A DNA stretch of 12,290 bases from a virus. The stretch spans positions 1-12,290 of IMG/VR virus record IMGVR_UViG_3300009285_000039; one strand, written 5' to 3'. A model generated the notes under the pieces. That model ran no database searches. It saw nothing but the letters and a program-made list of their open reading frames with translations, and had not been told where the DNA came from. Positions 1-12,290 of this stretch are shown here, in pieces. Every line of letters starts with the position of its first letter. Position 1 is the first letter of the stretch. The position numbers and the translations under genes were made by a program.

Positions 1-77
1 AGCTTATTAATTAATAATTCTATCTCGAATGTGAATACTTTAGGTATAAGAACACAAACAGGATGCTACTATAATAC
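1..77. repeat. Left copy of an exact 77-nt terminal overlap (identical to 12214..12290), indicating circular closure and a unique length of 12,213 bp
   Basis: Base-by-base comparison of the first 77 nt (agcttattaattaataattc...ctactataatac) with the last 77 nt shows no mismatch. The reading frame is continuous across the join. Confidence 0.9.
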
Positions 78-1041
78 TATCGCAAATAATTCTGTCAATA
101 ATAGTCAATGGAATTGTTATGATGCTGATGGATACTATAATAATTATACTACAAACATAGCTTATAATTGTTACCATAATAGTCTAGATATCTGTGGAAT
201 GACTACCCCGAGCATAAGAGCAGTAGGTGGTGTCATATCAGGAAATATTGTTTATGGCAGAGCATTAGCATATTTTTGTTATGGGATAAATATGACACTT
301 AAAAATAATATTGGATACTCTTTAACTGATAATGATGCTGGTGCTTATGGTATAGGTGTAGAGGGTTATCCCGCTAATATGTCTAATATATTGATAGAAA
401 ATAATACTTTGCATCAATATAACATTACAAGATTCATCGCTGTTGGCGGGAATGGTGTTATAATTAAAAACAATAAGTTTAATGGTTCAGGGTATGGTGC
501 GAAGATATATGCTTATCCGCCGAATCCTATAATGGTAAATATTACATTTATTAACAATACTATGATTAGTGATGATGACTTAATTTATGAGGTTGAGCAG
601 AACAATAGAAGCAATATAACTATTTATCAGAATAGTAATTATACATTTCGGGCAGTCTCAGTCGCAGGTCGGGGAGCATATTATACATTATATGCTACAG
701 GAGACTATAATGATGCCTTTAATGCTACTGGTGGGATAATTCAAGCGAACTTTACTATCTTAAGTGGCTATTTAAGTAATGGTGAGGTAATTAATGTGAC
801 AGCATTAGAGAATGGTTCGGCTCCGCCTGGAGGATCCTGTTCTTATGGTGGTTCGGGTGTCTGGATCATTAATATGTCTCTTAATTGTAATATCACTGCA
901 CCATTCACTGGCAACATATCGTTGATTGATAATGGAAATGTTTATATTAATTCCACTGTTAATGTGAGCAATAATTGGGCTCCATTAATGGGACAAATTA
1001 GGTGGTTCCTATCAGGAGCTAGGGTTAATAGGGTATATTGA
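1..1041 (+). CDS. C-terminal 346 aa of the 695-aa exported LamG-like / parallel beta-helix protein, continuing from 11167..12213 (putative receptor-binding protein, adhesin or depolymerase)
   Basis: Position 1 starts a codon in the same frame as ATG 11167 once the 77-nt overlap is collapsed. There are repeated N-rich beta-helix-type turns (NNSVNN, IENNTLH, IKNNKFN, FINNTMIS). Stop TGA is at 1039-1041. The GTG start at 31 in the ORF track is an artefact of the linear cut. Confidence 0.8.
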   Translation, partial: SLLINNSISNVNTLGIRTQTGCYYNTIANNSVNNSQWNCYDADGYYNNYTTNIAYNCYHNSLDICGMTTPSIRAVGGVISGNIVYGRALAYFCYGINMTLKNNIGYSLTDNDAGAYGIGVEGYPANMSNILIENNTLHQYNITRFIAVGGNGVIIKNNKFNGSGYGAKIYAYPPNPIMVNITFINNTMISDDDLIYEVEQNNRSNITIYQNSNYTFRAVSVAGRGAYYTLYATGDYNDAFNATGGIIQANFTILSGYLSNGEVINVTALENGSAPPGGSCSYGGSGVWIINMSLNCNITAPFTGNISLIDNGNVYINSTVNVSNNWAPLMGQIRWFLSGARVNRVY

Positions 1042-1050
1042 GGTGTAAAA

Positions 1051-1314
1051 ATGAAAAAGGATACTAGTTTGAGTAAGTCAGGATCTATGAAGGGTTATAG
1101 TCTTAAGGTATGGCTTGTGAAGAATAAGAATACTTTGAAGACTTTGGCTGCTGCTGTTGTGGCTATAGGGACGTTCTTTATTCCGAGTGTTGAGAGTATA
1201 GAATTGTCAGCATCGTTGGCTGTGGTTACTGGATCATTGTCTAAGTTAGGTCTTGATGCATTAGATTTCTATTTGTCTGATGTGTGGGTGAAGGTTGATC
1301 CACCTATTATCTAA
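1051..1314 (+). CDS. Small membrane protein (87 aa), function unknown, holin-like or anchor-like topology
   Basis: Strong SD GAGGTG at 1040-1045, 5 nt before the ATG. Basic N-terminus, then a hydrophobic segment TLAAAVVAIGTFFIPSV and a second weaker one, LSASLAVVTGSL. It is the last gene of the rightward arm. Confidence 0.6.
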   Translation: MKKDTSLSKSGSMKGYSLKVWLVKNKNTLKTLAAAVVAIGTFFIPSVESIELSASLAVVTGSLSKLGLDALDFYLSDVWVKVDPPII

Positions 1315-1325
1315 AGAAATTATTA

Positions 1326-1345
1326 GGGGACGTGATATCGTCCCC
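1326..1345. terminator. GC-rich hairpin between the convergent arms (stem GGGGACG, loop TGATAT, stem CGTCCCC), a candidate bidirectional terminator
   Basis: A perfect 7-bp stem read directly from the sequence. It lies in the 52-nt gap between the stop of 1051..1314 (+) and the stop of 1367..1696 (-). There is no clean T-run on the plus side and only a partly T-rich tail on the minus side. Confidence 0.5.
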
Positions 1346-1366
1346 CCAGATGTTCTTCCCCCCAAC

Positions 1367-1696
1367 TTATCTAGCTAGCATAGGAATCGGGATACCTATG
1401 ACTGTATCTTTTCCATTGCTTTTGCCTATCTGTAGCTTGATTATCTTACCGACCCATAGATCAGAATCTACACCATACTCTTCACTAATATTTTTTACGC
1501 TGTCTTTGTTTGGTGACCACTTCTTCATTTTATGATCTATTTCTACGGTCATTTCAAACTTGTTATATGCTTTCCCTTGATATTCTGCATCAACATATTC
1601 GCCACCGTCTATGATGACACACCTCTTTGTCGGGCTTGCCCTAACTAAATCCACATTTAAATAGCTGCTTTCCATTGCTTTCGTTACATCTACCAT
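1367..1696 (-). CDS. Small beta-rich protein (109 aa), possibly an OB-fold nucleic-acid-binding protein; function uncertain
   Basis: SD AGGTGA lies upstream of the ATG at 1696. The gene is tightly coupled to the ERCC4 gene (6-nt gap). The pattern YLNVDLV..(beta-rich)..KKWSPNKDSVKNISEEYGVDSDLWVGKIIKL resembles small phage proteins I associate with OB-like folds. This is recognition only. Confidence 0.5.
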   Translation of the reverse strand: MVDVTKAMESSYLNVDLVRASPTKRCVIIDGGEYVDAEYQGKAYNKFEMTVEIDHKMKKWSPNKDSVKNISEEYGVDSDLWVGKIIKLQIGKSNGKDTVIGIPIPMLAR

Positions 1697-1702
1697 TTTT
1701 AT

Positions 1703-2137
1703 TCACCTTCCGTATAGTTCGTTTAAGTTCGTTTCGAGTGTTTCAATAATCTTCTGAGCCATGATCTTGCGTGTTCTGCACTCAATAACTATGAGTTGAT
1801 ATCGTTCAATCATTGTATCCAGGATCCTTCTTAGTGTTTCTGGCCTGGTGCATATTGGTCTATTAGTCCATCTCAGGTCCATGAACTCCTGGATTGTTCC
1901 TTCTATGAAAATATAAAAAGTTTTACCCTGAAGTCTAGATCGGGTTATTTCGCGTTTAAATCTATCATGTCCCTTAATGATGCTTCCATATAGGTCCGCA
2001 AGACTTTTGCGTTCTAACACAATGTAAGGTACTAAATCAGGTGTATTATAGTCTCCTTCTTCTAGTTTGCGCCTGAGTGTCTTGTGTCTAGTGAATGATA
2101 AGGGTTTTTGTTCTCTAGTATCAATTATGATCTGCAT
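1703..2137 (-). CDS. ERCC4-type (XPF/Mus81/Hef-like) structure-specific nuclease, 144 aa
   Basis: Hallmark motifs are IIDTREQ near the N-terminus, then GDY, then VLERKSLADLYGSI, which matches the GDxn-ERKxxxD signature of the ERCC4 nuclease domain. Confidence 0.8.
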   Translation of the reverse strand: MQIIIDTREQKPLSFTRHKTLRRKLEEGDYNTPDLVPYIVLERKSLADLYGSIIKGHDRFKREITRSRLQGKTFYIFIEGTIQEFMDLRWTNRPICTRPETLRRILDTMIERYQLIVIECRTRKIMAQKIIETLETNLNELYGR

Positions 2138-2229: not shown

Positions 2230-2559
2230 TCATTGATTGTCGGGTCCACTCTTAACCTCAGGATCAGGATCTACAAACGTGCTTAACAGGTTCTGTTGTA
2301 AGCTAGATGTGCTCAGATCTGCCATTGCTGCCTCAACAGGCGCGAGTGCAGTTAGATCATAAAACATATGCCTGCGGTATTGATGTTTCTTTAGCCATCC
2401 CCTGTATACCATTGATTGCAGTATCTTCATTGTGTAGCTATAATCTATTGCTAGCTTATTGCTTATTGCTGTCACATTCTTTCTTGTGTTGTGCACTATG
2501 TTTAGGTATACTAGTATCCTGGCTTCACTTTCTTTTATTAACTTTTTTGGTCTTACCAT
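2230..2559 (-). CDS. Winged helix-turn-helix transcriptional regulator (109 aa)
   Basis: Perfect SD AAGGAGG upstream of the ATG at 2559. The segment ARILVYLNIV..NVTAISNKLAIDYSYTMKILQSMVYRGWLKK fits an ArsR/MarR-like helix-turn-helix plus wing layout. The C-terminal tail is acidic and probably disordered. Confidence 0.6.
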   Translation of the reverse strand: MVRPKKLIKESEARILVYLNIVHNTRKNVTAISNKLAIDYSYTMKILQSMVYRGWLKKHQYRRHMFYDLTALAPVEAAMADLSTSSLQQNLLSTFVDPDPEVKSGPDNQ

Positions 2560-2562: not shown

Positions 2563-2973
2563 TTATTCCTCCTTAACTACTTCTAATATTACGCCGAAAT
2601 TGAAATAGAATCTACCTTTTGCATCTGTCAAGTCTGCACCTCTCAAGTCTGCACCTCTCAAGTCTGCTCCTGTTAAGTCTGCAGCTGTCAAGTCTGCACC
2701 TCTCAAGTCTGCTCCTCTCAAGTCTGCACCTGTCAAGTCTGCACCTGTCAAGTCTGCACCTCTCAAGTCTGCACCTCTCAAGTCTGCATCTCTCAAGTCT
2801 GCACCTCTCAAGTCTGCACCTGTCAAGTCTGCATCTGTCAAGTCTGCATCTCTCAAGTCTGCACCTCTCAAGTCTGCAATTTCCAATAATATTTTTCCTG
2901 TAATCCTATTAGTTATTTTCATTTTGTCCTCATTATCTTGTTCATGTATCGGTTGAATTTTCTCATGCTCCAA
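2563..2973 (-). CDS. Pentapeptide-repeat protein with 17 consecutive A-D-L-(R/T)-(G/D/A) units and an acidic net charge
   Basis: The translation is ADLRG/ADLRD/ADLTD/ADLTG x17, with 21 Asp versus 10 Arg inside the repeat. The track start at 2973 is TTG. An in-frame ATG at 2922 preceded by GAGGA is the more likely start, giving 119 aa. Confidence 0.85.
   Translation of the reverse strand: MEHEKIQPIHEQDNEDKMKITNRITGKILLEIADLRGADLRDADLTDADLTGADLRGADLRDADLRGADLRGADLTGADLTGADLRGADLRGADLTAADLTGADLRGADLRGADLTDAKGRFYFNFGVILEVVKEE
2621..2875. repeat. Tandem array of 17 x 15-nt units (consensus gcacctctcaagtct) encoding the pentapeptide repeats
   Basis: Unit-by-unit count: 7 units are identical to gcacctctcaagtct, 3 to gcacctgtcaagtct, 2 each to gcatctgtcaagtct and gcatctctcaagtct, and 3 are singletons. 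Very few differences are synonymous. Confidence 0.95.
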
Positions 2974-3015: not shown

Positions 3016-3192
3016 TTAGCTTTTGTTGTAGTCACTTTTGCCTCTACTGAACACTACTGCTGTGTATTGGATTGTCATGCCTGATTCTTTGTTTACGTGT
3101 GTTTGTGTTGCGAATACGTTAACGGTTTTTTCGTATTCATTGACTAATTTGTCAAATTCTTCTGCACTATCACTTGTTATGGTTTTTATCAT
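3016..3192 (-). CDS. 58-aa small protein, first gene of the leftward arm (MIKTITSDSAEEFDKLVNEYEKTVNVFATQTHVNKESGMTIQYTAVVFSRGKSDYNKS); function unknown
   Basis: Hand translation; it falls below the 60-aa cutoff of the ORF track. SD GGTGAT (3198-3203, minus strand) lies 5 nt upstream of the ATG. The layout resembles small Cse60-like alpha/beta phage proteins, which is weak recognition only. Confidence 0.5.
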   Translation of the reverse strand: MIKTITSDSAEEFDKLVNEYEKTVNVFATQTHVNKESGMTIQYTAVVFSRGKSDYNKS

Positions 3193-3228
3193 TTTCGATC
3201 ACCTTAATACTACTTATAGTATAGGTTA

Positions 3229-3236
3229 TATTTAAA
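3229..3236 (-). promoter_or_regulatory. Candidate promoter element for the leftward arm: TTTAAATA on the minus strand (archaeal TATA-box-like)
   Basis: The minus strand reads aacaTTTAAATAtaacc. The element ends 37 nt upstream of ATG 3192, leaving room for a transcription start just upstream of the SD. A split ATACT-N6-AGTAT inverted repeat (3207-3222) sits between it and the SD. Confidence 0.3.
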
Positions 3237-3293
3237 TGTTGTGAAAGATATTTCCATACATCCAAAAAAGTAGTTATATATGTGACGTGAACT

Positions 3294-3347
3294 AAAAGAG
3301 AAAAAAGAAGAACAAAAGAAGCAAAAAAAGAAGAAAAAAGAGAAAAA
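3294..3347. repeat. Polypurine (A/G) tract, 54 nt with only two pyrimidines on the plus strand
   Basis: Read directly: aaaagagaaaaaagaagaacaaaagaagcaaaaaaagaagaaaaaagagaaaaa. It is non-coding. The 60-aa minus-strand ORF 3170..3352 is its low-complexity mirror. Confidence 0.8.
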
Positions 3348-3642
3348 CACACACCCTGCTAACTAAGCAAACACTCATTAGACGTATATAATAATAAAAA
3401 AGTGCATAACTTATATATAAGGTTTATGAAAGATAAATCATTACTACTTAAAAATACAACAACGTTTTATGTCTTTTTTACCATGTTTCCACACGAAATC
3501 AAGCATTTATGTTTTTTAAGCACAATATAAGAACAAAAAACTACCTGTAGTAATAATCCCCAACAAAGATTTTTGTCAGTTTTTTGATCAAATACACATT
3601 ATAATCGTGTGGTGTGTATGAACATATAAAGAGTAGTGCAAC

Positions 3643-3666
3643 ATCATGCACTAGCGCGTGCATGAT
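3643..3666. promoter_or_regulatory. Perfect inverted repeat ATCATGCAC-tagcgc-GTGCATGAT (9-bp stems, 6-nt loop)
   Basis: Read directly. The CATGCAC core recurs a third time at 3685-3691. It lies in the centre of the non-coding control region. Confidence 0.6.
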
Positions 3667-3754
3667 CACAACACAATTAATACTCATGCACAACCAAACA
3701 AACACATAAATAGATCAAAAAACTTCGATCAAACTGTCACTGATGACTAATGGT

Positions 3755-3874
3755 GTATACTAATATGTCATTATCACTACTAGTATACGTTTATCCATTC
3801 TGTTCACTCATAATCAATGACGTATACTAGTATACAAATAGCTATACTAGTATGTCACTAAGTATACTATTCAC
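3755..3874. promoter_or_regulatory. Array of about 5 palindromic sites built on ATACT/AGTAT half-sites (best copy GTATACTAGTATAC at 3822-3835), interleaved with TGTCAC and CACTAAG motifs
   Basis: Copies: GTATACTAATAT 3755-3766, CTACTAGTATAC 3777-3788, GTATACTAGTATAC 3822-3835 (a perfect 14-bp palindrome), TATACTAGTATG 3843-3854, GTATACTATT 3862-3871. There is an extra half-site, CTAGTATA, at 3942-3949. Confidence 0.7.
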
Positions 3875-3888
3875 TAAGCGACAGTTAA

Positions 3889-3909
3889 GGGGGGGGATAA
3901 AGGGGGGGG
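3889..3909. promoter_or_regulatory. G8-ATAAA-G8 homopolymer doublet 46 nt upstream of the terL start
   Basis: Read directly: G at 3889-3896, ataaa, then G at 3902-3909. By eye these are the longest G runs in an otherwise AT-rich unit. Confidence 0.8.
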
Positions 3910-3954
3910 TTAGATGTCACAAAAATTATTATTAATGATGTCTAGTATATTTTT

Positions 3955-5214
3955 ATGATTCTTGATCAATGGCAGAAGGATGTTTTGGAAGCTGAGGGGA
4001 ATATTTGTATTTGTTCTGGTCGTCAGGTTGGTAAGTCTGAGATTATTGCCCTAAAAACTGCTACCTTCATCTCTAAGTATCCCAACAAAAAGGTTCTTAT
4101 TATCTCGGTGACTGAGGCTCAGGCTGAGAATATGCTTATTAAGATCTTGTTGCATTTGCATGCTATTGATAAGCGGTTGATTGCTAGGGGTGGTAATCGT
4201 CCTACTAAGCATAAGGTTGTTCTTATGAATGGGAGTTATGCTATCACTAAAGCAGTCGGACAATATGGCTTAGGAGCTCTTGGTTTGACTATGGACGTGG
4301 TTGTTCCTGATGAGTGTGCTTATCTTCCTGAGACTATTTGGGCGTCGATCACCCCTATGCTCTTGACCACTGGTGGTTCTTTGTGGTTATTGAGTACGCC
4401 TAATGCTCAGGAAGGATATTTTTATAAGGCGTATACTGATCCGTCTTATGGTTTTAGGACTTTTCATGTGAATTCTGAGGATGTGGCTAATGCTCGTGCT
4501 GAGCCTATGCGTTCTCTTATGTTAGCACACTTGGAAAGGGAGAAGTTGCGTATGTCTCCTATGCAGTATGCTCAGCAATACCTAGCACAATTTCAAGAAG
4601 AATTGGGACAATTGTTTTCTGATGAGCTAATTCAGGGTGCGCAGGTTATGGATCGTGTGCCTCTTGTTAAGGGTGATTATTATTTGGGTGTGGATGTTGC
4701 TAGGATGGGCGGTGATGAGACTACTTTCGAGATCCTGGAGCGTAAGGATAAGAAGTATTATCAAAGAGAAAATATTACTAATAAGTATACGCTAACAACT
4801 GAAACCATCAGCAAGATTTTAGAATTAGATCGCATTTATGATTTCAAACAAATATATATTGATGATGGTGGCTTAGGCGTGGCTGTGTTTGATCAATTAT
4901 TGAATACTAATCAGACAAAGAATAAAGTGGTTGCGATTAATAATGCTGCTAGATCTATAGAAATGGATAACAACCGCAGACGTAAACTCTTGAAGGAAGA
5001 TCTTTACCTTAACTTCTTAAACCTCATCGAGAAACAGGAATTATTTTTGTTGAAAGATCCCGAAATTTTTACTAGTTTAAAGTCTATTATGATTGAACAT
5101 GATGTGCAAAAACAAAACATTAAAATATATGGGCGTTATAGTCACATTACAGAAGGCTTAATTCGGGCTGCTTGGAGTAATCACTCGACGAGACTAAACC
5201 TTTGGGTTAGGTAA
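3955..5214 (+). CDS. terL: Terminase large subunit (ATPase plus RNase H-like nuclease), 419 aa
   Basis: Walker A is CSGRQVGKSE, Walker B with the catalytic Glu is DVVVPDECAY, and the coupling motif is LLSTPN. Nuclease acidic motifs are YYLGVDVARMGGDETT and IYIDDGGLGVAVFDQL. No SD is present, so this may be a leaderless first gene. Confidence 0.9.
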   Translation: MILDQWQKDVLEAEGNICICSGRQVGKSEIIALKTATFISKYPNKKVLIISVTEAQAENMLIKILLHLHAIDKRLIARGGNRPTKHKVVLMNGSYAITKAVGQYGLGALGLTMDVVVPDECAYLPETIWASITPMLLTTGGSLWLLSTPNAQEGYFYKAYTDPSYGFRTFHVNSEDVANARAEPMRSLMLAHLEREKLRMSPMQYAQQYLAQFQEELGQLFSDELIQGAQVMDRVPLVKGDYYLGVDVARMGGDETTFEILERKDKKYYQRENITNKYTLTTETISKILELDRIYDFKQIYIDDGGLGVAVFDQLLNTNQTKNKVVAINNAARSIEMDNNRRRKLLKEDLYLNFLNLIEKQELFLLKDPEIFTSLKSIMIEHDVQKQNIKIYGRYSHITEGLIRAAWSNHSTRLNLWVR

Positions 5215-5221: not shown

Positions 5222-5371
5222 ATGGCATTTCGAGACAAATATACCACTGATGCGTTAATTCTTAAAGATCCTGATCCAAAAAAACCTGAGAAGAATAAGA
5301 TTATATTATCTAATGATGCTTTAGCTATTGGTGAATTGCTTGAATGTTTAATAAATCGGATGGTGAAATAA
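5222..5371 (+). CDS. 49-aa hypothetical protein (MAFRDKYTTDALILKDPDPKKPEKNKIILSNDALAIGELLECLINRMVK)
   Basis: Hand translation. It fills the gap after terL, and its stop overlaps the next ATG (TAATG). An A10 run lies immediately upstream. Confidence 0.35.
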   Translation: MAFRDKYTTDALILKDPDPKKPEKNKIILSNDALAIGELLECLINRMVK

Positions 5372-5475
5372 TGGTGTATCCACTAACAATATATTTTAAG
5401 TCAGAGAAAGAGCGTGATGAATTTAAGATGCCTGCACCTACGGTTGCAGTAGTTGTTGCGAAAAAAAAGAAGTGA
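5371..5475 (+). CDS. 34-aa hypothetical protein (MVYPLTIYFKSEKERDEFKMPAPTVAVVVAKKKK)
   Basis: Hand translation. It is translationally coupled to the previous ORF and ends 4 nt before the next gene. Confidence 0.3.
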   Translation: MVYPLTIYFKSEKERDEFKMPAPTVAVVVAKKKK

Positions 5476-6488: not shown

Positions 6489-7577
6489 ATGGCGTACGGA
6501 TTATCAAACACAGCAACAGGGAATATGACAACTACAGTGACGGATGTTACCGTTACAGCGTTGAATACTGACGGATCTGGCGCGTCTAAGGAATCTTACT
6601 GGCAGAATACTAAGTGGAGCACTTATTGGGGATATTTTAATTGCATCCCAGAACTAAAATCTGCTCTCTTAATGAAGGCAACATGGGATGTAGGCAAAGG
6701 ATATACCACCGATCCTGCAACTGCTGTATTATTGGATAGTATTTCTGGGTGGGGTAAAGACACATTCCTGGATATTCTCTTTAATATGGATTTGATCTCT
6801 CGACTAGCTGGGGATGCATTCGCAGAAATTATTATGGATAAAAAGGCCGATACATTGCTAAATATTAAGGTGCTTGATCCTGGAAGTATAAAGATAGTCA
6901 CCGACGATAAGGGGATTATTAAGCGTTATGAACAGAATAGCAAGATCACTGGGAGTGTAATAACATTTAAGCCTGAACAAATATTTCATTTATCACACAA
7001 TAGATTAGCAGATCAGATTCATGGGATGAGCGATATTATCTCGATGGAAAACACCATCTTAGCCGAGCTTGAGAATTTTACTGATTTAAAAAAGATTATG
7101 CACCGTCAAGCACGTCCAATGATCATGTTCAAATTAGGCACTGATGATCCAGCAAAGATCTCTGCGTTCGTTGCTAAGATGGATCAAGCTGTGAATAAGG
7201 GTGAAAACATTTATATTCCTGACGATAAGAACACCGTTTCCTACGAAGTAATCCAAGTAGACGTAGGTGCTAGCGTTATGGCGTGGCGTGAGGATATCAG
7301 GAACAAGTTTTATCGTACTCTAGGACTGCCACTTATAGTGTTTGGCAGCTCTGGAAGTACGGAAAGCGGTGGAAAGATAGAGTATCTCGCTCATGAGCAA
7401 GTATTTAGTCATGACCAAAAGTTTATAGAAGAGCAAATCTGGAATCAACTCTACTTGAGAATTAAACTTAATTCTCCTGTAACTCTTCTAGAAAACTTGC
7501 AGAAGGATCAATCTAAGGATGCTAATCAGGGTATGGAAATGCAACAGAGTGATATTACTGCTGGGAGTGGTGCATAA
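6489..7577 (+). CDS. Portal protein (362 aa from ATG 6489)
   Basis: The segment AGDAFAEII..LNIKVLDPGSIKIV.DDKGIIKRYEQ....ITFKPEQIFHLSHNRLADQIHGMSDI...LENFTDLKKIMHRQARPMIMFKLG matches the conserved core layout of HK97/SPP1-type portals. It lies downstream of terL. The GTG start at 6462 would overlap the upstream gene and lacks an SD. Confidence 0.75.
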   Translation: MAYGLSNTATGNMTTTVTDVTVTALNTDGSGASKESYWQNTKWSTYWGYFNCIPELKSALLMKATWDVGKGYTTDPATAVLLDSISGWGKDTFLDILFNMDLISRLAGDAFAEIIMDKKADTLLNIKVLDPGSIKIVTDDKGIIKRYEQNSKITGSVITFKPEQIFHLSHNRLADQIHGMSDIISMENTILAELENFTDLKKIMHRQARPMIMFKLGTDDPAKISAFVAKMDQAVNKGENIYIPDDKNTVSYEVIQVDVGASVMAWREDIRNKFYRTLGLPLIVFGSSGSTESGGKIEYLAHEQVFSHDQKFIEEQIWNQLYLRIKLNSPVTLLENLQKDQSKDANQGMEMQQSDITAGSGA

Positions 7578-8507
7578 ATGGCAAACTATAAAGAGTATAT
7601 GGGAAATCAGGTGAGCAAATTCTTACCTAAAACAAAAAAGAAATCAGTTACCCTCCCAGAGAAGGAGAATACCCCACTTCCCGATCCTAGAATGCAGGGA
7701 AGCATGAAATCATTATATGAGGATATTAAGAAGAATAAGTCTGCTCCTGAAGGTTATCATAAAGCTGGGACTTATGCTTCAGATTATAAGCCAATCATAG
7801 AGCCTACAGTTAGAGAGAAGGTGCAGGCAACTATTGATCAAGCAAATTTAAAGAAACAGATGGAGACAGAACAGGCAACCCCAAATGTTTCTCAAGAACA
7901 ATTATCACAGCTCGGACAATTAACACCTGAACAGCAAGCAGTAGCTAATAGTAATTCTAAACTAGCAGGTAAATTTAATCTTGGTGCTGTTGGTGCGGCT
8001 GTTGCTGAACGTGCAAGTATAGGTGCTGTTACTGGAGCAGTAGGCGGTGCAGGTATTGGCGCATTGGCTGGCGGTGTTGGTGCAGTTCCTGGAGCTGTGG
8101 CTGGTGGTATTGGTGGGGCTGCGGTTGGGACTATTAGTGCATTCTTTACAGGTTTTAAAGATGTCAATTATGATAATATCGCAGGGATAGATAGTAATGT
8201 TGCTAATGCTAAATGGAAGATAAATAATGCTGCTTCAATAGCGTTAAAAGGTGCGAGTTATGAGGATGTGAAAAAGGAAGTAGGTGATAGTATAGCACAA
8301 CTTGATCTTGCTGAACGTCAATATAAGCGTGCTAGTAAGAATGTTTATGCTGAGAGAACTCATACTATGCAGAAGATGGAGGATATTATTAAGTATCGAA
8401 GGGATATTCTTCCTGATAAGATATTGCGTGTAGAGTTAGCACTACAGAGACCTAATCCTTCAGGGATAGATAATGGAGTTGATGAGGTAGGTGTGACTTA
8501 TGGTTGA
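7578..8507 (+). CDS. Protein with a basic N-terminus, a central glycine-zipper hydrophobic block and a C-terminal helical region (309 aa); scaffold-like or ejection/pilot-like
   Basis: GAVGAAVAERASIGAVTGAVGGAGIGALAGGVGAVPGAVAGGIGGAAVGTISAFFTGF is a long GxxxG/AxxxG run. The gene is immediately downstream of the portal. SD GGAGTGGTG is present. Confidence 0.55.
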   Translation: MANYKEYMGNQVSKFLPKTKKKSVTLPEKENTPLPDPRMQGSMKSLYEDIKKNKSAPEGYHKAGTYASDYKPIIEPTVREKVQATIDQANLKKQMETEQATPNVSQEQLSQLGQLTPEQQAVANSNSKLAGKFNLGAVGAAVAERASIGAVTGAVGGAGIGALAGGVGAVPGAVAGGIGGAAVGTISAFFTGFKDVNYDNIAGIDSNVANAKWKINNAASIALKGASYEDVKKEVGDSIAQLDLAERQYKRASKNVYAERTHTMQKMEDIIKYRRDILPDKILRVELALQRPNPSGIDNGVDEVGVTYG

Positions 8508-8688
8508 AATAAATTATCGTATAGTAATCGCAGGCATGGTATGTCTCACACTTATATATATCGCATTGCTATTAACTGAGCATGTAGATGGAACAATAGG
8601 CGCAATGATCGTAGGATTAATAGGTATTGCGATGGGAGTGGTTATTCCATCACCAAAAATCGATAGGCGAGGGGTGTTAAAATGGTAG
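8500..8688 (+). CDS. 62-aa protein with two predicted transmembrane helices
   Basis: IVIAGMVCLTLIYIALLL and IGAMIVGLIGIAMGVVI are separated by the short polar loop TEHVDGT. SD GAGGTAGGTG is present, and the gene has an ATGGTTGA overlap with the upstream gene. Confidence 0.55.
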   Translation: MVEINYRIVIAGMVCLTLIYIALLLTEHVDGTIGAMIVGLIGIAMGVVIPSPKIDRRGVLKW

Positions 8689-8942
8689 AAGAACAAAAGA
8701 AAGATTTAGACATTATTGATAAGGCACATCTAGCAGCTGAAAGACTAGAAATGGCAAACAGAGTAAAGAAAGAGTTATTAGATCGCGAAGAAGAACTAGA
8801 GAAACGCATGGAAGGAAGAAGACTACTAGGCGGTGAATCAGCTGCAGGCATGCCAACTAGGGAATTGACAGAAGAAGAAAAGATGCAGATAGGACTAAAG
8901 ACATACTGGAAGGGCACAGCACTAGAAGGAGTGTTTAAATGA
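8682..8942 (+). CDS. 86-aa charged helical protein, candidate scaffolding protein
   Basis: Glu/Lys/Arg-rich helical sequence (AAERLEMANRVKKELLDREEELEKRMEGRR). It lies upstream of the decoration-like and capsid genes, and the MCP lacks an N-terminal delta-like extension. Confidence 0.4.
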   Translation: MVEEQKKDLDIIDKAHLAAERLEMANRVKKELLDREEELEKRMEGRRLLGGESAAGMPTRELTEEEKMQIGLKTYWKGTALEGVFK

Positions 8943-9094
8943 TTCCAGTAGAAGAATGGCGAACAGGCCTAAAGGCCTGGCAGAATATAAAGAAACAATC
9001 AGAGATAGACGGGGAACAAGCAGACTTAATAATCCCCGTAATAGAACAAAAAATAATGGAGCTAGAAGCTCAAGAGGTAAAAGATGGCAAATGA
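8939..9094 (+). CDS. 51-aa hypothetical helical protein (MIPVEEWRTGLKAWQNIKKQSEIDGEQADLIIPVIEQKIMELEAQEVKDGK)
   Basis: Hand translation. ATGA overlap with the upstream stop, and an 11-nt overlap with the downstream gene. Confidence 0.35.
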   Translation: MIPVEEWRTGLKAWQNIKKQSEIDGEQADLIIPVIEQKIMELEAQEVKDGK

Positions 9095-9476
9095 AGCAGT
9101 ATGTTTAATTGCACCAACAAAGTTTCACACTTACACTGTGGCAGATGGTGCTGGAATAGCAAAAGGCACACTCCTTGCATTGACAGATCCAAACACTGCG
9201 GCAGCGTCAAGTGCTGATAATGACGTGTTTGCAGGTATTGCAATGGAAGAAAAGGTAGCTAGTGATGGTATAGTAAGAATGACCGCAGCACTTGATGGCG
9301 TATGGGCTTTAGTAGCTACAGCCGCAGGGATCACAGTAGGCAACCAAGTAACAGTAGGTGGAGCAAACACAGTGAAGGTATACACTACACTTGATGATGA
9401 GAAGGGCTATGTCGTAGGACGAGCACTAGAAACGACAGCTGGTAGCGAATCAATAATGGTTCGCTTAGGGTGGTAA
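9084..9476 (+). CDS. Head decoration / capsid-cement-like protein (DUF2190-like), 130 aa
   Basis: The size, the position immediately upstream of the MCP, and the pattern VFAGIAMEE..DG.V..TAALDGVWAL......ITVGNQVTV....VKV.......GYVVGRALETTAGSESIMVRL resemble the small beta-rich family usually found next to HK97-type capsid genes. Confidence 0.55.
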   Translation: MANEAVCLIAPTKFHTYTVADGAGIAKGTLLALTDPNTAAASSADNDVFAGIAMEEKVASDGIVRMTAALDGVWALVATAAGITVGNQVTVGGANTVKVYTTLDDEKGYVVGRALETTAGSESIMVRLGW

Positions 9477-9479: not shown

Positions 9480-10364
9480 ATGGCAGACACAGTAGGAGAA
9501 CAAGATTTGAGAGCAGAATACATCGACGCAACAATCAAAGCAATAGCGTTGAGAGAATATGTCCTAAAAGACTTATGCACAATAGAATCGTCTAGCGCAT
9601 GGACTGAGACATATTATAGGGAGACAAATACTGATCCAACGGACCAGACAACAGGTGGCGGAGCATTTGTCAAGATTAAGGGTATCCCTAGACTATCACC
9701 ATTCCCATTCGGACAAGCAAGCTGGACAAAGGTATCAGGTATCAATCAGAAGTATGGAGCAGAAGGCTTAGTGTCTTATGAGGATGAGTTGATGAGCAAT
9801 ATCAGCGTAATCCAGAGAACAATGCTAAGAGTAGCTAGGGCACCTGTTTTGGCTGTGGATAGCGATATTGCAGCATTAATGCTTGCATCGGCTGGTAATG
9901 TTGTTACTATAGGTGCTGGTAATGAGTGGAATAGTGCGACGGTAGCCAATAGGTTACCAATCAAAGACATCCTAGATGCTATACAATTGATTAGGGCAGA
10001 CAACCTAAACGCACTAGGTGGAAACGGGTACTTATGCGTTAATGGTACAGACTACACAAACCTAATAAGCAATAGTCAGGTAGTGAATAATCCGACATTC
10101 AAGAGCGGAGTATTAGAGAATGGTGTAGTCGGAGAACTTTGCGGACTAAAGATTAAGGTCACAGAATCCTTAGAATTTGGTACTCCTGATAAGGCATATG
10201 TTGTGATAGCAAAAGAGGCTATGACATGGAAAACAGTTGTCCCCCTAACTACTATGACAATAGTTGATCCTGGAATCAAAAAGACAATCAGGGCATGGGA
10301 GTTAGGACAAGCCCAGATGGTTGTACCAAATGCTGTTGCAAGAATAGACAATACGAGGGCTTAA
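9480..10364 (+). CDS. Major capsid protein, probable HK97 fold (294 aa)
   Basis: Its size, its position after the scaffold-like and decoration-like genes, the strong SD (GGGTGGT) and a mixed alpha/beta sequence are typical of tailed-virus MCPs. An oligo-T terminator follows shortly downstream, consistent with a highly expressed unit. Confidence 0.7.
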   Translation: MADTVGEQDLRAEYIDATIKAIALREYVLKDLCTIESSSAWTETYYRETNTDPTDQTTGGGAFVKIKGIPRLSPFPFGQASWTKVSGINQKYGAEGLVSYEDELMSNISVIQRTMLRVARAPVLAVDSDIAALMLASAGNVVTIGAGNEWNSATVANRLPIKDILDAIQLIRADNLNALGGNGYLCVNGTDYTNLISNSQVVNNPTFKSGVLENGVVGELCGLKIKVTESLEFGTPDKAYVVIAKEAMTWKTVVPLTTMTIVDPGIKKTIRAWELGQAQMVVPNAVARIDNTRA

Positions 10365-10366: not shown

Positions 10367-10546
10367 ATGTCAGAAGACATACTCTATCCTAAGTCTTTAG
10401 TGCTTCCAGTATTAACCACAGCAGTCATAGATACATTAGTGGCAGATGTAGGCACAATAGTTTATGATGCTACAAAGAATAAGATATCTGTATGCGTGAC
10501 TAAGGCTGCTGGTGCTGGTAATTGGGAAGACGTAACAAGCGCATAA
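10367..10546 (+). CDS. 59-aa protein (MSEDILYPKSLVLPVLTTAVIDTLVADVGTIVYDATKNKISVCVTKAAGAGNWEDVTSA)
   Basis: ATG 10367 lies 2 nt after the MCP stop, with GAGGG upstream. The track start at 10295 would overlap the MCP gene. The G-x-I-V-Y-D-x-T-x-N-K...W motif resembles fibre or glycine-rich repeat units of phage tail and head fibres (weak). Confidence 0.45.
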   Translation: MSEDILYPKSLVLPVLTTAVIDTLVADVGTIVYDATKNKISVCVTKAAGAGNWEDVTSA

Positions 10547-10568
10547 TTTATTTTTTTTATATTTTTTT
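10547..10568 (+). terminator. Oligo-T block (TTT-A-T8-AT-A-T7), a candidate hairpin-less (archaeal-type) terminator, with a possible internal promoter region
   Basis: Read directly. It is the only long non-coding T-rich gap inside the rightward arm and is followed by GAGGTG plus ATG 10581. Confidence 0.4.
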
Positions 10569-10580
10569 GAGGTGTTCAAA

Positions 10581-10955
10581 ATGTCGGATGTGAAACAAAT
10601 ATTTGGAATCAGAGAATCAAGCGGTATGCTTGTCAGACCTGAGAGGCAGTCTATAGAGCAGACTGAAGATTATGCTTTTAAGCAGGTGATTCATACTAAA
10701 GAATTATACGTTAATGGTGCAGCCATAGCAGGCGCAGGAAATATTCATGAGCCAACAACATATCGAGGCACAGACTTTGCTGGAGTTAATCCCAACAAGA
10801 CATTAACACATTCTAGGACGCTACCTGTTTCTATGCAATTATTTATTGGTGGGCGTATGATGATCAGAACCGTTGAGTATACCATAGCTGGTGCTGTGAT
10901 CTCAATGGTTGATGTAACTATTGATGACGACGATTACGTCGTGGTGTGTGATTAG
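10581..10955 (+). CDS. 124-aa protein of unknown function, presumed structural
   Basis: SD GAGGTG lies 6 nt upstream of ATG 10581. The GTG start at 10572 falls inside the SD itself. I recognise no motif. Confidence 0.5.
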   Translation: MSDVKQIFGIRESSGMLVRPERQSIEQTEDYAFKQVIHTKELYVNGAAIAGAGNIHEPTTYRGTDFAGVNPNKTLTHSRTLPVSMQLFIGGRMMIRTVEYTIAGAVISMVDVTIDDDDYVVVCD

Positions 10956-10956
10956 A

Positions 10957-11160
10957 ATGAGAAGGACTATAATCTTTTTGATGCTTGCATTATTGCTTAT
11001 AGGATCTGTGTTGGCTATTGCGTTCACTCCTAAGGGTGATGTGAATCTTCAGAGGTATTATAAGATAATCAATGCTACAGGAATATCTCTAGTGAATGGG
11101 AATATTACTGGCGTGAATTGTGTGATCTACCAGTCTGGCGGGATGGATTGTTCGGGATAA
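10957..11160 (+). CDS. 67-aa exported or membrane-anchored small protein
   Basis: From ATG 10957, MRRTIIFLMLALLLIGSVLAIAF has a classical n-region, h-region and AxA-like layout of a Sec signal peptide or N-terminal anchor. The track start at 10921 overlaps the upstream gene. Confidence 0.5.
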   Translation: MRRTIIFLMLALLLIGSVLAIAFTPKGDVNLQRYYKIINATGISLVNGNITGVNCVIYQSGGMDCSG

Positions 11161-11166
11161 GATCCT

Positions 11167-12290
11167 ATGAATAAGGTACTATTATTTTGGGGATTATGTA
11201 TAGTTATTAGTACGAGTATGGTTTATGCTGCTGTGCCTTTGCCTAAATATTTTTGGAATGGTTCATCGGTGGTATCTCAAGGCACCCCTATTGTTTTAAA
11301 GAATTATAATTCTACAAATTTTCATGCTGATGGGACACTTGATTATTATAATTTTAGTGAAACAACACAAAGTTTTTTAGGAAACACAACTATTAGTTTG
11401 TTAGATTTTAATATTACTTCTGTTGGTGCTATAGCTTCATGTTTTAGTGGCAACAAATTTAGTGCTACAGATGTCTTATTTGTTAATACTCAGGATCCAA
11501 AGAATAGTACTGTCGCTGTGACCTTTGCTAGTGGTGGAACATCTGTTAGGTTTGGATTAGAAAATGGCAGTACTTCAAAAGTTTCTGTTAGTAGTGGAGT
11601 GTTAAAGAATTTTACTTGGTACTGTATTGTAGGAAACATTTTCGATATTTCTAATGTTGATTTGTTTTTGAATGGTGTTAATCAGACTGGGACTTCAGCG
11701 ATACCTGCATTAGATACTCAGGGTGTTTATATCGGTGGTTTTCCTAAATACATTTATTATAGTAATCTATTGGTAGCCTATATTGCTATCTATAATACCA
11801 CCTTATCTGCTTCTGAGATAGCGGAATTAAATATTACATGGACGAGTTATGACCCTTATAATTCTAATGAAACTAATGGTTCTTGTGTTTCACCTTCCGA
11901 AAATTTATATATTAATAACGCTACAGTGTTATGTCCAGGCGTTTTTACTTTGGTTGATCCTGATGATAATGGTGCTATAATTATTAATGCAAGTAATATT
12001 GTTCTAACCTGTAATGATACTGTATTGAAGGGTGATTATGGTGCTGGAAGTATAGGAATATATATTTCTAATAAGAATAACGTTACTGTAGAGAATTGCG
12101 GTATAAGAGAATACTTTAGGGGAATATACACTTATGGGACTATATCAAATACTATAAAGAATAATGTTTTTAATCATACAGATTATGGCATTGATACACA
12201 ATACACTAATGACAGCTTATTAATTAATAATTCTATCTCGAATGTGAATACTTTAGGTATAAGAACACAAACAGGATGCTACTATAATAC
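11167..12290 (+). CDS. N-terminal part of the 695-aa exported protein: signal peptide, LamG/concanavalin-like lectin domain, then the start of the parallel beta-helix (continues at 78..1041 after collapsing the overlap)
   Basis: Hand translation shows no stop from ATG 11167 to the window end. The N-terminus MNKVLLFWGLCIVISTSMVYA-AV looks like a cleavable signal peptide. W.CIVGN...VDLFLNGVNQTG......GVYIGGFP.....LVAYIAIYNTTLSASEIAELN is a typical LamG_3-type signature. IVLTCNDTVLKG...GIYISNKNNVTVENCGI...GIYTY.TISNTIKNNVFN matches PbH1/NosD-like beta-helix repeats. Confidence 0.8.
   Translation, partial: MNKVLLFWGLCIVISTSMVYAAVPLPKYFWNGSSVVSQGTPIVLKNYNSTNFHADGTLDYYNFSETTQSFLGNTTISLLDFNITSVGAIASCFSGNKFSATDVLFVNTQDPKNSTVAVTFASGGTSVRFGLENGSTSKVSVSSGVLKNFTWYCIVGNIFDISNVDLFLNGVNQTGTSAIPALDTQGVYIGGFPKYIYYSNLLVAYIAIYNTTLSASEIAELNITWTSYDPYNSNETNGSCVSPSENLYINNATVLCPGVFTLVDPDDNGAIIINASNIVLTCNDTVLKGDYGAGSIGIYISNKNNVTVENCGIREYFRGIYTYGTISNTIKNNVFNHTDYGIDTQYTNDSLLINNSISNVNTLGIRTQTGCYYN
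12214..12290. repeat. Right copy of the exact 77-nt terminal overlap (identical to 1..77)
   Basis: See the feature at 1..77. Confidence 0.9.

Follow-up and report, generated by a model that had tools for sequence, protein, structure and literature searches.

Tailed phages with genomes of 11.6-11.7 kb have been isolated, the satellite P4 has a genome of 11.6 kb, and a genome-size peak at 12.6 kb corresponds to capsids of T~3 (PMC7762592). Small, tail-less circular elements bearing HK97 genes are also on record; because they carry integrases and lack TerL and portal, they form a different group from the genome described here, which has both and no integrase (10.1101/2025.06.18.659913). The window, a viral DNA stretch of 12,290 nt from IMG/VR record IMGVR_UViG_3300009285_000039, is read by us, at a probability of roughly 55%, as an uncultivated, autonomous miniature head-and-portal virus, very short-tailed or tail-less, which would be replicated by host enzymes. 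Its placement is in the realm Duplodnaviria, Caudoviricetes-like. What distinguishes this 12.2-kb genome is a TerL combined with the absence of a replicase.

A closed genome in a lineage of uniform size

The two ends of the window share 77 identical nucleotides (1..77 = 12214-12290), and collapsing this overlap gives a circle of 12,213 bp, whose junction was found by ORF reconstruction to fall within an intact 695-aa ORF.

1..77, no strand: assembly overlap (exact 77-nt terminal repeat, with independent contigs over the junction)

Contig L042 (Logan SRR3989309) matches the circularised window at 100% identity over the arc that runs from 4300 across the junction as far as 2654, and contig L039 (JGI 3300002097) spans the junction at 99.86% identity. 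For the same virus, MEGAHIT also yielded a separate circle, L038, whose ends overlap by 141 nt. With the junction spanned by independent contigs from other datasets, the window is a complete genome, neither fragment nor chimera, as the original prediction had stated. Its further claim, that the virus stands at the extreme small end of terminase-dependent viruses, is fair, with the correction that the size has precedent in the isolated phages of 11.6-11.7 kb. An overlap of 77 corresponds to one of the k-mer sizes that assemblers use as standard.

Relatives of the capsid protein fall into at least 574 clusters, whose longest contigs never exceed 12.35 kb. Nine independent circular assemblies measure 10.8-12.2 kb and are closed by k-mer overlaps of 55, 77, 99, 114, 127 and 141 nt, and every complete genome of the group lies within this range; genome size is hence conserved. 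Just two contigs among 230 metagenome relatives are longer than one genome unit, and both are tandem concatemers (one a 23.2-kb dimer with a unit of 11,687 nt, the other a 1.33-mer whose unit measures 11,213 nt). No integrated copy, or copy within a longer contig, was found in any collection searched (hundreds of contigs). Gene order is fixed, and a core gene set is common to dozens of relatives, which come from oxygen-poor waters (the Rifle aquifer, anoxic lakes and sediments).

Nothing similar was detected among 50,697 GenBank phages or 72,556 plasmids. The best TerL match among the GenBank phages is Halogranum tailed virus 1, at 28.6% identity, and for the capsid protein there is essentially none; the anticipated remoteness from every classified virus thus stands. 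No paper describing the group was found in the literature. The genome belongs to a large, globally distributed lineage, apparently undescribed, whose members rank among the smallest viruses pumping DNA into a shell in tailed-phage fashion.

Head, packaging and candidate appendage proteins

The predicted terminase-portal-HK97 head module is present, as TerL, portal and capsid protein match PHROGs, Pfam and PDB profiles.

3955..5214, + strand: TerL, large terminase subunit, 419 aa, ATPase plus RNaseH-like nuclease (phrog_2, E 1e-31)
5222..5475, + strand: two overlapping mini-ORFs of 49 and 43 aa (gene calls in all strains, L038-L042)
6489..7577, + strand: portal protein, 362 aa (phrog_12, E 1e-15)
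8682..9094, + strand: charged helical proteins of 86 and 51 aa, directly preceding the cement and capsid genes (position, composition)
9084..9476, + strand: cement/decoration protein, 130 aa (PF09956, E 6.5e-5; in 40 loci)
9480..10364, + strand: HK97-type major capsid protein, 294 aa, without delta domain (phrog_1650, E 1e-10)
10367..10546, + strand: 59-aa protein after the capsid gene (in 19 loci)

Pfam matches cover both the ATPase and the nuclease half of TerL (Terminase_6N, Terminase_6C, T7 RNaseH-like), which also matches the solved ATPase domain of P74-26 TerL (PDB 4znj, E 8e-5). The portal of relative L043 exceeds the Pfam Phage_portal cut-off, the capsid family profile matches solved major capsid proteins in the PDB, and capsid homologues carry precomputed PF25209. 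The cement protein scores 23.7 bits against a PF09956 cut-off of 24; L044 carries an unmarked match to the same family. The 49- and 43-aa mini-ORFs have no family match, and a head-completion role for the 59-aa protein is only a guess. From their position and composition, the 86-aa protein, whose family is present in 39 loci, and the 51-aa protein would be scaffolding proteins. The capsid may assemble around the portal with the help of these small, separate scaffolds and without a protease, in the manner of P22, T7 and phi29. A genome of ~11-12 kb would fit a T=3-sized shell, the capsid size being deduced from the genome.

The lack of other phage functions, also foreseen, held in sensitive searches of the genome and its relatives. 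Pfam, PHROGs, NCBIfam and PADLOC revealed no tail tube, sheath, tape measure or baseplate, no polymerase, primase, helicase, Rep or integrase, and no protease, TerS or lysin in the genome, where neither a tRNA nor an Rfam match turned up. Replication, integration, protease, TerS, lysin and canonical tail genes were likewise missing from 118 accessory proteins of ~30 relatives, and inspection of 24 further loci found no replicase, integrase, protease or tail tube. The remaining rightward genes are as follows.

5480..5863, + strand: 127-aa all-helical core virion protein, adaptor/neck-like module (in 37 of 43 loci; AF2 pLDDT 89)
5860..6486, + strand: 208-aa jelly-roll protein with a disordered, flexible N-terminal arm (AF2 pLDDT 88, pTM 0.82)
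7578..8507, + strand: 309-aa protein, hydrophobic and Gly/Ala-rich at its centre, with a charged helical C-terminus (DUF6861, E 1.4e-8)
8500..8688, + strand: 62-aa protein with two transmembrane helices, conserved behind the post-portal protein (homologues in 13 loci)
10581..10955, + strand: 124-aa short fibre, conserved ~45-aa N-terminal anchor plus small C-terminal domain (shared N-terminus)
10924..11160, + strand: 78-aa protein with an N-terminal hydrophobic segment, in the exported-protein module (gene calls)
11167..12290, then 78-1041 (3' part listed as 1..1041), + strand: 695-aa junction-spanning ORF (ORF reconstruction)
1051..1314, + strand: 87-aa membrane protein after the exported protein (hydrophobic segment in translation)

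The 127-aa protein is a predicted virion structural module. It has 621 representative clusters, is joined to fibre or cement domains in some relatives, and matches phrog_541 weakly (E 0.004); its predicted fold weakly resembles Mu gp36 (TMq 0.55), with no significant match among solved structures. The model of the 208-aa protein gave Foldseek matches to the CocE jelly-roll domain (E 5e-7) and TNF-like folds, a generic jelly-roll resemblance, and all of its 121 homologues lie on contigs of <=12.35 kb; it may form a portal-proximal or surface appendage. The N-terminus of the 124-aa protein matches two proteins of relatives, one in L001 with collagen repeats and 632 aa (E 6e-10), the other in L031 with 242 aa (E 2e-18), and this anchor is common to long fibre proteins, collagen-like and trimeric, of relatives, which encode LamG, collagen and beta-helix proteins. 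Most relatives have a positional analogue of the 309-aa protein (300-590 aa) after the portal, and an internal or ejection, membrane-active role is suggested for it.

The 695-aa protein consists of a Sec-type signal peptide and a lectin-like LamG domain (Laminin_G_3, E 3.9e-6) in its 5' part, and a right-handed beta-helix (NosD, E 6e-6) and C-terminal region in its 3' part. It carries 42 N-x-S/T sites against 15.8 ± 3.6 expected, and the enrichment persists outside the beta-helix (z 4.3); beta-helix repeat patterns could account for part of the excess. The original prediction had overlooked both the signal peptide and the sequon count. Together with the protein's restriction to the closest relatives, these two features make an exported, N-glycosylated accessory protein more probable than a core tail spike. 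In L043 the homologue of the 78-aa protein has 283 aa, a signal peptide and a sequon z of 3.1. The 87-aa protein, with a homologue in L043 only, may have a holin-like or membrane-anchor role.

The original prediction assembled a minimal tail from the 127-, 208- and 124-aa proteins and the 695-aa protein. The first three retain their place, as virion module, jelly roll and fibre anchor, and the last drops out for the reasons just given. No nozzle or tail hub was identified in the genome. The "tail" would then be pared down to a few portal-proximal parts, namely the adaptor-like 127-aa module, the 208-aa jelly roll and modular short fibres held by the conserved 124-aa N-terminus, while the 309-aa Gly/Ala-rich protein and the 62-aa membrane protein might help the DNA to cross the envelope.

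Leftward operon and the region upstream of TerL

The opposite strand carries a leftward operon, separated from the TerL operon by an AT-rich region.

1367..1696, - strand: 109-aa protein (adjoins the ERCC4 nuclease in L026-L028 and L043)
1703..2137, - strand: ERCC4/XPF-type structure-specific nuclease with GD...ERKxxxD motif (Pfam ERCC4, E 2.7e-9, above cut-off)
2230..2559, - strand: TrmB-like winged-helix DNA-binding protein (Pfam TrmB, E 9e-7; HTH_27, E 4e-5)
2563..2973, - strand: pentapeptide-repeat protein (Pfam Pentapeptide, E 2e-35)
3016..3192, - strand: 58-aa protein that opens the operon (homologues in L028 and L031)
3193..3954, no strand: 762-bp AT-rich non-coding region between divergent operons (cumulative GC-skew minimum)
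3756..3854, no strand: four clustered TATACTAGTATA-type palindromes (similar repeats in relatives)
3887..3912, + strand: two G8 tracts 13 nt apart (AAGGGGGGGGATA / AAGGGGGGGGTTA), 46-66 nt upstream of TerL

The nuclease also matches phrog_3490 (E 1.8e-19), and other members have an SNase-type nuclease in its place. The 109-aa protein always neighbours it in the closest relatives and has no PDB or Pfam match. Underlying the pentapeptide protein is a tandem repeat, 15 nt x 17 (2620-2878, TRF), whose copy number varies among near-identical strains (86, 116 and 136 aa).

The 762-bp region is a putative origin, promoter and packaging-signal region. It contains a purine tract (3289-3351) and inverted repeats, elements conserved in relatives; repeats of the form GTGACATACyAGTATACAAA, similar to the TATACTAGTATA palindromes, occupy the equivalent place in L031 and L026. 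The paired G-tract element is conserved in the diverged relatives L026, L030, L031 and L043, and contigs L040 and L043 terminate at it. Host enzymes alone would copy the DNA, starting from this region, and the winged-helix protein, likely a regulator, may act on the palindromes and control the divergent operons. The ERCC4 nuclease, or its SNase-type counterpart, might trim concatemers and resolve branched replication intermediates ahead of packaging, and TerL would cut and package the concatemers, probably beginning near the palindrome/paired G-tract element.

Autonomy and host

Autonomy, capsid size and genome termini are deduced here from sequence alone. Variable adsorption parts (the 124-aa anchor, the 127-aa fusions and the LamG, collagen and beta-helix proteins) were counted for an autonomous virus; the missing replication gene and recognisable tail were counted against autonomy, as they also fit a satellite. 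Such a satellite would make its own capsid, TerL and portal, take tails and perhaps replication functions from a larger co-infecting head-tailed virus, and persist as an episome between infections. We consider this, the main rival, unlikely. Its size of ~11-12 kb matches known satellites such as P4, capsid-forming PICIs are similar in size, the head and packaging module comes without recognisable tail tube, hub, tape measure or replicase, and the adaptor-like 127-aa protein could dock to a foreign tail. Against it stand the lack of an integrase and of any integrated copy among hundreds of contigs, of a plasmid replication or partition gene and PLSDB match, and of recognised helper-interference genes; the lineage itself is very diverse and widespread, and it encodes its own variable fibre and lectin proteins on a conserved anchor, normally needless for tail-stealing satellites.

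For the autonomous virus, an archaeal host is probable, and a DPANN-type cell living in anoxic groundwater plausible. The signal peptide and N-glycosylation-site enrichment of the 695-aa protein point to an archaeal host; only proteins with a signal peptide show the sequon excess (z from 4.3 to 7.3, compared with 0.13 ± 1.04 in 97 core cytoplasmic proteins). No enrichment of sigma-70-like promoter sites was seen, which was counted on the same side. A virus of the same kind infecting ultra-small CPR (Patescibacteria) bacteria instead is a doubtful alternative. MAGs with the labels Saccharibacteria, Paceibacterota, Spirochaetales and Nanoarchaeota contain binned relatives, and one of the first two labels applies to three of the five GTDB bins concerned; the Rifle aquifer, anoxic lakes and sediments abound in CPR, and the GGTG/GGAGG ribosome-binding sites suit bacteria as well as archaea. 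However, binning is weak host evidence because the bin contigs are all short, stand-alone and virus-sized, and the absence of a peptidoglycan hydrolase from every member, the N-x-S/T sites enriched in secreted proteins, the TrmB, ERCC4 and HVO_A0261_N domains and the haloarchaeal virus as best TerL match all argue for archaea.

A non-infectious domesticated or plasmid-like element, a GTA-like or encapsulin-like capsid producer kept as a circular episome without viral spread, would agree with the circular assembly, the lack of replicase and lysin and the recorded tail-less HK97 elements, yet is very improbable: the complete TerL with intact nuclease half and the portal imply packaging of its own unit-length DNA, the genome is closed and self-contained, unlike gene-transfer agents, which reside in the chromosome and leave their own cluster unpackaged, its length is held at 10.8-12.2 kb as a capsid-size limit would produce, and the rapid evolution of the fibre and lectin genes points to selection on host recognition.

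Genome closure and unit length

The window comprises 12,290 nt with a G+C content of 37.9%. Its first 77 nt are identical to its last 77 nt, 77 being a standard assembler k-mer, and collapsing this overlap gave a 12,213-bp circle whose junction lies within the uninterrupted 695-aa ORF. A Logan contig of the same virus (L042) matched the circularised window at 100% identity from 4300 through the junction to 2654, and a JGI contig from the Rifle aquifer (L039) was 99.86% identical over the junction-spanning stretch of L042. Meanwhile, an ENA contig assembled by MEGAHIT (L038) formed an independent circle of the same virus with a 141-nt overlap. Because other public assemblies cross the junction at 99.9-100% identity, the window is neither a fragment nor a chimera, and the original prediction of a complete circular genome of about 12.2 kb was borne out.

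The capsid protein retrieved at least 574 relative clusters (E<1e-5), and none of the 120 matches listed lay on a contig longer than 12.3 kb; likewise, relatives of the 208-aa and 127-aa proteins were on no over-length contig among the matches listed. IMG/VR contained 30 relatives of 10.4-12.2 kb, seven of which (10.8-11.3 kb) had exact k-mer-length terminal overlaps and were hence regarded as independent circular assemblies. A metagenome scan added 230 further relatives, with only two contigs exceeding one unit length. Both were head-to-tail tandem concatemers: a 23,200-nt contig (L103 plus L106, JGI25134J35505_10000219) amounted to 1.98 times an 11,687-nt unit, and a 14,923-nt contig (L056) to 1.33 times an 11,213-nt unit. 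The copies within them were inexact (99.98% and 99.76% identity); such contigs may be concatemeric replication forms, or wrap-around assemblies of mixed strains.

Across the loci compared (L001-L124), G+C content ranged from 31% to 50%, yet length was constant at 10.8-12.2 kb, so that genome size proved to be conserved with only the concatemers being longer. Sample identifiers indicate that the sources probably range over groundwater, lake sediment, stratified lakes of Antarctica, fens and low-oxygen marine water. The G+C spread and this range of sources suggest that a single strict limit on capsid size applies across many different hosts.

Relatives in GTDB genomes occurred solely as short stand-alone contigs in inconsistent bins (Saccharibacteria, Paceibacterota, Spirochaetales and Nanoarchaeota), and no integrated copy was found in GTDB or the metagenome scan. 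As the GTDB contigs stand alone and the metagenomes gave unit-length contigs plus the two concatemers, an integrated provirus or island was ruled out. A plasmid was also dropped as a reading since a PLSDB search returned zero matches.

Gene order, head module and intergenic region

The genes are arranged in two operons.

Operons and repeat-bearing genes of the window
3955 round to 1314, + strand: rightward operon, with TerL first and an 87-aa membrane protein last
3192 to 1367, - strand: leftward operon, encoding 58-aa, pentapeptide-repeat, TrmB-like winged-helix, ERCC4 nuclease and 109-aa proteins
2563-2973, - strand: pentapeptide-repeat gene, a 15-nt unit repeated 17.3 times at 2620-2878
11167-12290 plus 78-1041, + strand: 695-aa gene, LamG plus NosD/beta-helix protein

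The rightward operon encodes, in order, TerL, two mini-ORFs, the 127-aa and 208-aa proteins, the portal, a 309-aa post-portal protein, a 62-aa protein, 86-aa plus 51-aa charged helical proteins, the cement protein and the capsid protein; past the capsid gene follow the 59-aa, 124-aa, 78-aa hydrophobic and 695-aa proteins and the 87-aa membrane protein. Relatives keep the order TerL, 127-aa, one to four small proteins, portal, a protein of 300-590 aa, 86-aa, cement and capsid, followed by a protein of about 60 aa, variable fibre or lectin proteins and small non-structural genes. TerL, 127-aa, portal, 86-aa, cement and capsid constitute the core set across relatives.

According to the ICTV profile (PMC12451611), the hallmarks of Duplodnaviria / Caudoviricetes include a major capsid protein with the HK97 fold, a portal and a large terminase subunit with ATPase and nuclease. 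TerL matched phrog_2 (E 1e-31, residues 3-398) as well as the solved ATPase domain of P74-26 TerL in the PDB, and the Pfam Terminase_6N and RNaseH-like C-terminal domains, both under their gathering cut-offs, were consistent with a large terminase subunit. The portal matched phrog_12 (E 1e-15), and its homologue in the relative L043 passed the Pfam Phage_portal cut-off (42.5 bits vs 39.1). The 294-aa capsid protein matched phrog_1650 (E 1e-10), its family profile matched the solved major capsid proteins 9jwb (6.5e-6) and 8i4l (8e-5), and homologues carried precomputed PF25209 assignments, which points to the HK97 fold. The lineage therefore has these three Duplodnaviria hallmarks, but no protease: a capsid maturation protease, likewise listed as a hallmark, was absent from the window and from 118 accessory proteins of relatives. 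P22, T7 and phi29, all accepted Caudoviricetes, lack one as well, and its absence hence does not exclude membership.

The cement protein matched PF09956 (Phage_cement_2; E 6.5e-5) at 23.7 bits, just under the Pfam cut-off of 24, and its homologues in L044 and L043 had precomputed PF09956 matches. The post-portal protein is Gly/Ala-rich with a DUF6861 match. The ERCC4 nuclease was supported by both Pfam (E 2.7e-9) and phrog_3490 (E 1.8e-19). Close relatives of the window carry this nuclease with the linked 109-aa protein, and at least eight more distant members have an SNase-type nuclease in its place; some nuclease seems to be needed, its type being interchangeable. The pentapeptide-repeat protein measured 86, 116 and 136 aa in near-identical strains, and several contigs break within the repeat, so repeat number appears to change quickly. 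This protein might be a DNA mimic or an anti-defence factor, although this is a guess.

A putative origin, operator and packaging-start region is proposed between the operons from its sequence features.

Features of the intergenic region
762 bp: intergenic region between the operons, AT-rich, with the cumulative GC-skew minimum
3289-3351, + strand: purine tract of about 60 nt, almost pure A/G
3756-3854: palindromes, four copies of TATACTAGTATA
3889-3909, + strand: pair of G8 tracts, 13 nt apart, shortly upstream of TerL

The element upstream of TerL (3756-3912) runs from GTGACATACyAGTATACAAA-type palindromes through GCGACAG to the paired G7-8 tracts, which lie 13 nt apart. This element is kept in relatives with a TerL identity of just 40-78%, lying at about 1750-1900 in L031, about 400-560 in L026 and 1-30 in L043. 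The contigs L040 and L043 end at or beside G tracts; such ends may be either physical genome ends or assembly breaks at a homopolymer. The sequence of the purine tract is shared with L043, a relative with an 89% identical capsid protein; a blastn comparison of its DNA with the window found no match.

Missing functions, candidate delivery proteins and host

Searches of the window with Pfam, PHROGs, NCBIfam and PADLOC detected no polymerase, primase, helicase, Rep, integrase or protease, and no TerS, lysin, tail tube, sheath, tape measure or baseplate. The gene lists of the original prediction, present and absent, were thus correct. A tRNA search and Rfam gave nothing for the window, and PADLOC returned nothing meaningful on defence or anti-defence roles of the small genes. 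Pfam was run on 118 unassigned proteins (90 aa or longer) from some 30 loci and recognised SNase-type nucleases (8) and LamG domains (6), the remaining matches being collagen, F5/8-type C, CcdA, HeH, HVO_A0261_N and a methyltransferase. For relatives' proteins, PHROGs further yielded endonuclease, methyltransferase and fibre-like matches. In 24 further loci, the unmatched large ORFs were post-portal-type proteins, methyltransferases and winged-helix proteins. The largest non-structural ORFs of the window and its relatives are nucleases and methyltransferases. Neither a nozzle family nor one for a tube, sheath, tape measure or baseplate was detected in the window or the relatives' accessory proteins searched, no integrase, primase/Rep or TerS in the window or relatives, and no hidden replication or tail gene among the relatives' loci examined. 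Sensitive profile searches therefore uncovered no canonical tail or replication gene, and the lack of such genes is, on this profile evidence, a lineage-wide property and not one of the window alone.

The AlphaFold model of the 127-aa protein has five helices (pLDDT 89). Foldseek gave no significant match in the PDB, and in BFVD only weak ones: an unnamed protein (TMq 0.69), a Mu gp36-like protein (TMq 0.55) and a T7-type tail tubular protein A. Searching PDB sequences with profiles of the 127-, 208- and 109-aa families and the ERCC4 nuclease gave no match. A full-library profile search recovered 621 representative clusters of the 127-aa family, about 15 of which have an additional N-terminal beta domain. 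In one member the fusion partner is a tail-fibre C-terminus (phrog_9017, E 2e-16), in another a cement/head-decoration domain, and one cluster touches the head-tail adaptor phrog_541 (E 0.004). In L044, a 127-aa fusion gene lies among fibre genes past the capsid gene, with a NosD beta-helix protein filling the TerL-portal slot. Owing to the fibre and cement fusions and this fibre-region position, the 127-aa protein was taken as an exposed virion module and ruled out as TerS; its matches make it best described as a candidate adaptor- or neck-like protein.

The 208-aa protein was modelled as a jelly roll with a disordered 28-residue arm (pLDDT 88, pTM 0.82). Foldseek returned only generic jelly rolls, such as the C-terminal domain of CocE-type hydrolases and TNF-like trimers; the predicted fold is compatible with an appendage without identifying one. 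Residues 1 to 41-52 of the 124-aa protein match the N-termini of two relatives' proteins, one of 632 aa with collagen repeats (E 6e-10) and a trimer-type one of 242 aa (E 2e-18). By this alignment the 124-aa protein is of classic fibre design, with a putative conserved anchor and an exchangeable tip. Of a tail, another Caudoviricetes hallmark in the ICTV profile, the fibre anchor and the adaptor-like 127-aa module are the candidate parts.

Analogues of the post-portal protein, identified by position in most relatives, run from a polar N-terminus through a hydrophobic centre rich in Gly/Ala to a charged C-terminus, which suggests an internal or ejection function. Together with the 127-aa module and the 208-aa jelly roll, the post-portal protein represents families with hundreds of members, all unannotated. 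Directly past the post-portal gene, the 62-aa gene (8500-8688) stays in the structural operon; its product has two transmembrane helices and a conserved PSPK motif, with homologues in 13 loci, and may serve as a holin or pierce membranes as part of the virion.

The 695-aa protein starts with a typical signal peptide and contains 42 N-x-S/T sites, compared with 15.8 ± 3.6 in shuffled sequences. In its LamG part outside the beta-helix, 14 sites were found vs 5.4 expected, the reversed motif occurring 3 times. Signal-peptide proteins of L043 share the excess (z 5.2 and 3.1), while core cytoplasmic proteins do not (z 0.13 ± 1.04, n=97). The 695-aa module is confined to the closest relatives. It therefore fits best as a predicted exported, N-glycosylated accessory protein, which may modify the surface of host cells or the attachment between cells, and is probably not a tail spike. 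Small membrane proteins flank the gene, and L043 (7099-9587) encodes its LamG-side and beta-helix portions separately, each as a signal-peptide protein. An exported glycoprotein encoded by a tailed-type virus is unusual. Of the minimal tail originally proposed from the 127-, 208-, 124- and 695-aa proteins, the virion module and the fibre anchor stood, the 208-aa protein contributed only a generic jelly roll, and the 695-aa protein probably falls away on account of its signal peptide, sequons and restricted distribution.

The best TerL match among 50,697 GenBank phage records was the haloarchaeal Halogranum tailed virus 1 (HGTV-1; 28.6% identity, E 5e-21), vs 3e-13 for the best bacterial phage. 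No peptidoglycan hydrolase was found in any member searched, sigma-70-like promoter sites were not enriched, and TrmB, ERCC4 and HVO_A0261_N domains, which we count as pro-archaeal, occur in the lineage. Given these observations and the glycosylation signature, the host is likely an archaeon. Archaeal BRE/TATA elements with a leaderless TerL were suggestive in the window and close relatives; they were inconsistent across the family and were therefore taken as weak evidence. The source sites include the Rifle aquifer and, judged by sample identifiers, probably anoxic lakes, fens and sediments, and are presumably rich in DPANN. A CPR bacterial host, a question separate from whether the element is autonomous, a satellite or non-infectious, is unlikely beside these archaeal indications.

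Relation to known systems and proposed way of life

We consider an autonomous virus the main reading, at slightly better than even odds (roughly 55%), based on the self-contained head-and-packaging genes, the strict length ceiling, the absence of integration and the lineage's own variable fibre genes. Such a virus would assemble its capsid with a scaffold and no protease. Host machinery would replicate the DNA into concatemers, to be tidied by the ERCC4 nuclease (SNase in other members), and TerL would drive packaging; the tail would be very short or none. The shell would be T=3-sized, because PMC7762592 assigns a genome peak of 12.6 kb to T~3 and predicts T=3 capsids for tailed-phage-type viruses.

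A more specific version is only tentative, and we would not bet on it: a free-living virus of a DPANN-type archaeon, with the long-sought T=3-sized, terminase-packaged HK97 capsid, no true tail and no replication gene of its own, delivering its 11-12-kb genome by a portal vertex with adaptor, short fibres and a membrane-inserting ejection protein. If true, it would be the simplest known terminase-dependent virus, in a separate family-or-higher lineage.

A tail-stealing satellite is the next reading, with cf-PICIs as the known system to compare. Such elements measure about 10-15 kb and supply an HK97 capsid protein, a portal, TerL and head-tail connectors from their own genes; a tail is missing, and the small capsids are fitted to their own genome. 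The lineage resembles them in size, in its own head and packaging genes and in the lack of tail genes. However, cf-PICIs reside within bacterial chromosomes, equipped with integrase, regulators, a replication module, TerS and protease, none of which was found in the lineage, which also has no integrated copy and encodes its own fibre-like proteins. With the defining integrase, chromosomal residence, replication module and TerS all absent, the satellite reading is improbable; if it held, this would be a capsid-forming tail-stealer outside the chromosome, possibly the first such archaeal case. A non-infectious element is most improbable; gene transfer agents are chromosomal clusters that do not package themselves, in contrast to a closed 12.2-kb circle of conserved unit length with none embedded in a chromosome.

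Tailed-phage-type viruses are thought to require fairly large genomes, and the smallest ones studied (phi29-like phages, Mycoplasma P1) bring their own protein-primed polymerase. The phi29-like viruses (Salasmaviridae and relatives) and other tiny podoviruses share with the window a genome size at the lower limit of tailed viruses, very few tail parts and, as proposed for the window, a separate scaffold without protease. Their genomes are linear with a terminal protein, their family-B polymerase is protein-primed and their packaging ATPase lacks a nuclease, whereas the window has a full TerL with its nuclease half and a circular or permuted assembly. Neither that polymerase nor a terminal protein was found in the window (all profile libraries) or relatives, and sequence similarity was zero. 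Among very small podoviruses, Mycoplasma phage P1 has 11.7 kb and Salmonella phage astrithr 11.6 kb (PMC7762592), and a 2024 review regards the phi29 group as the smallest known tailed viruses (PMC11476376).

About 11 kb suffices for a capsid-portal-terminase machine without replication, integration, protease or conventional tail genes, in a lineage both abundant and diverse across anoxic waters and sediments. Should the virus be autonomous, terminase-dependent viruses would have a new lower bound of complexity, and a tractable minimal model of packaging and DNA delivery would be at hand; with DPANN hosts, it would add a common virus type for a group with poorly characterised viruses.

Archaeal head-tailed viruses share the hallmark head module and the likely archaeal host. 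They are many times larger (HGTV-1, 143.9 kb), with recognisable tails and replication genes, and their TerL identity to the window is <30%. No near-identity to a classified phage or virus family emerged, TerL reaching 28.6% at best and capsid similarity being undetectable. The lineage's sequences stand unannotated in IMG/VR and other public collections, and the literature on small HK97 genomes and CPR/DPANN viruses yielded no description of it, within an incomplete coverage that leaves an earlier one possible. Aguilar et al. 2025 (10.1101/2025.06.18.659913) described metagenomic HK97 genomes <11.6 kb with direct terminal repeats, mostly tail-less. Their 'twilight-zone' clade, from the human gut with a mean of 8.9 kb, carries integrase plus RepA or helicase and no terminase or portal (10.1101/2025.06.18.659913); this gene content is opposite to that of the lineage, hence a different clade.

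Cemented capsids of the Bordetella phage BPP-1 type likewise have a small beta-rich cement protein adjoining the capsid gene. BPP-1 is a roughly 42-kb podovirus. In contrast to that type, several relatives of the window (L002, L003, L011, L019, L036 and L044) carry two cement paralogues or a cement domain within a larger protein, for example a 394-aa fusion in L044 and P0503, which joins the 127-aa module to a cement domain. It seems that surface structures draw on the cement fold repeatedly as a component.
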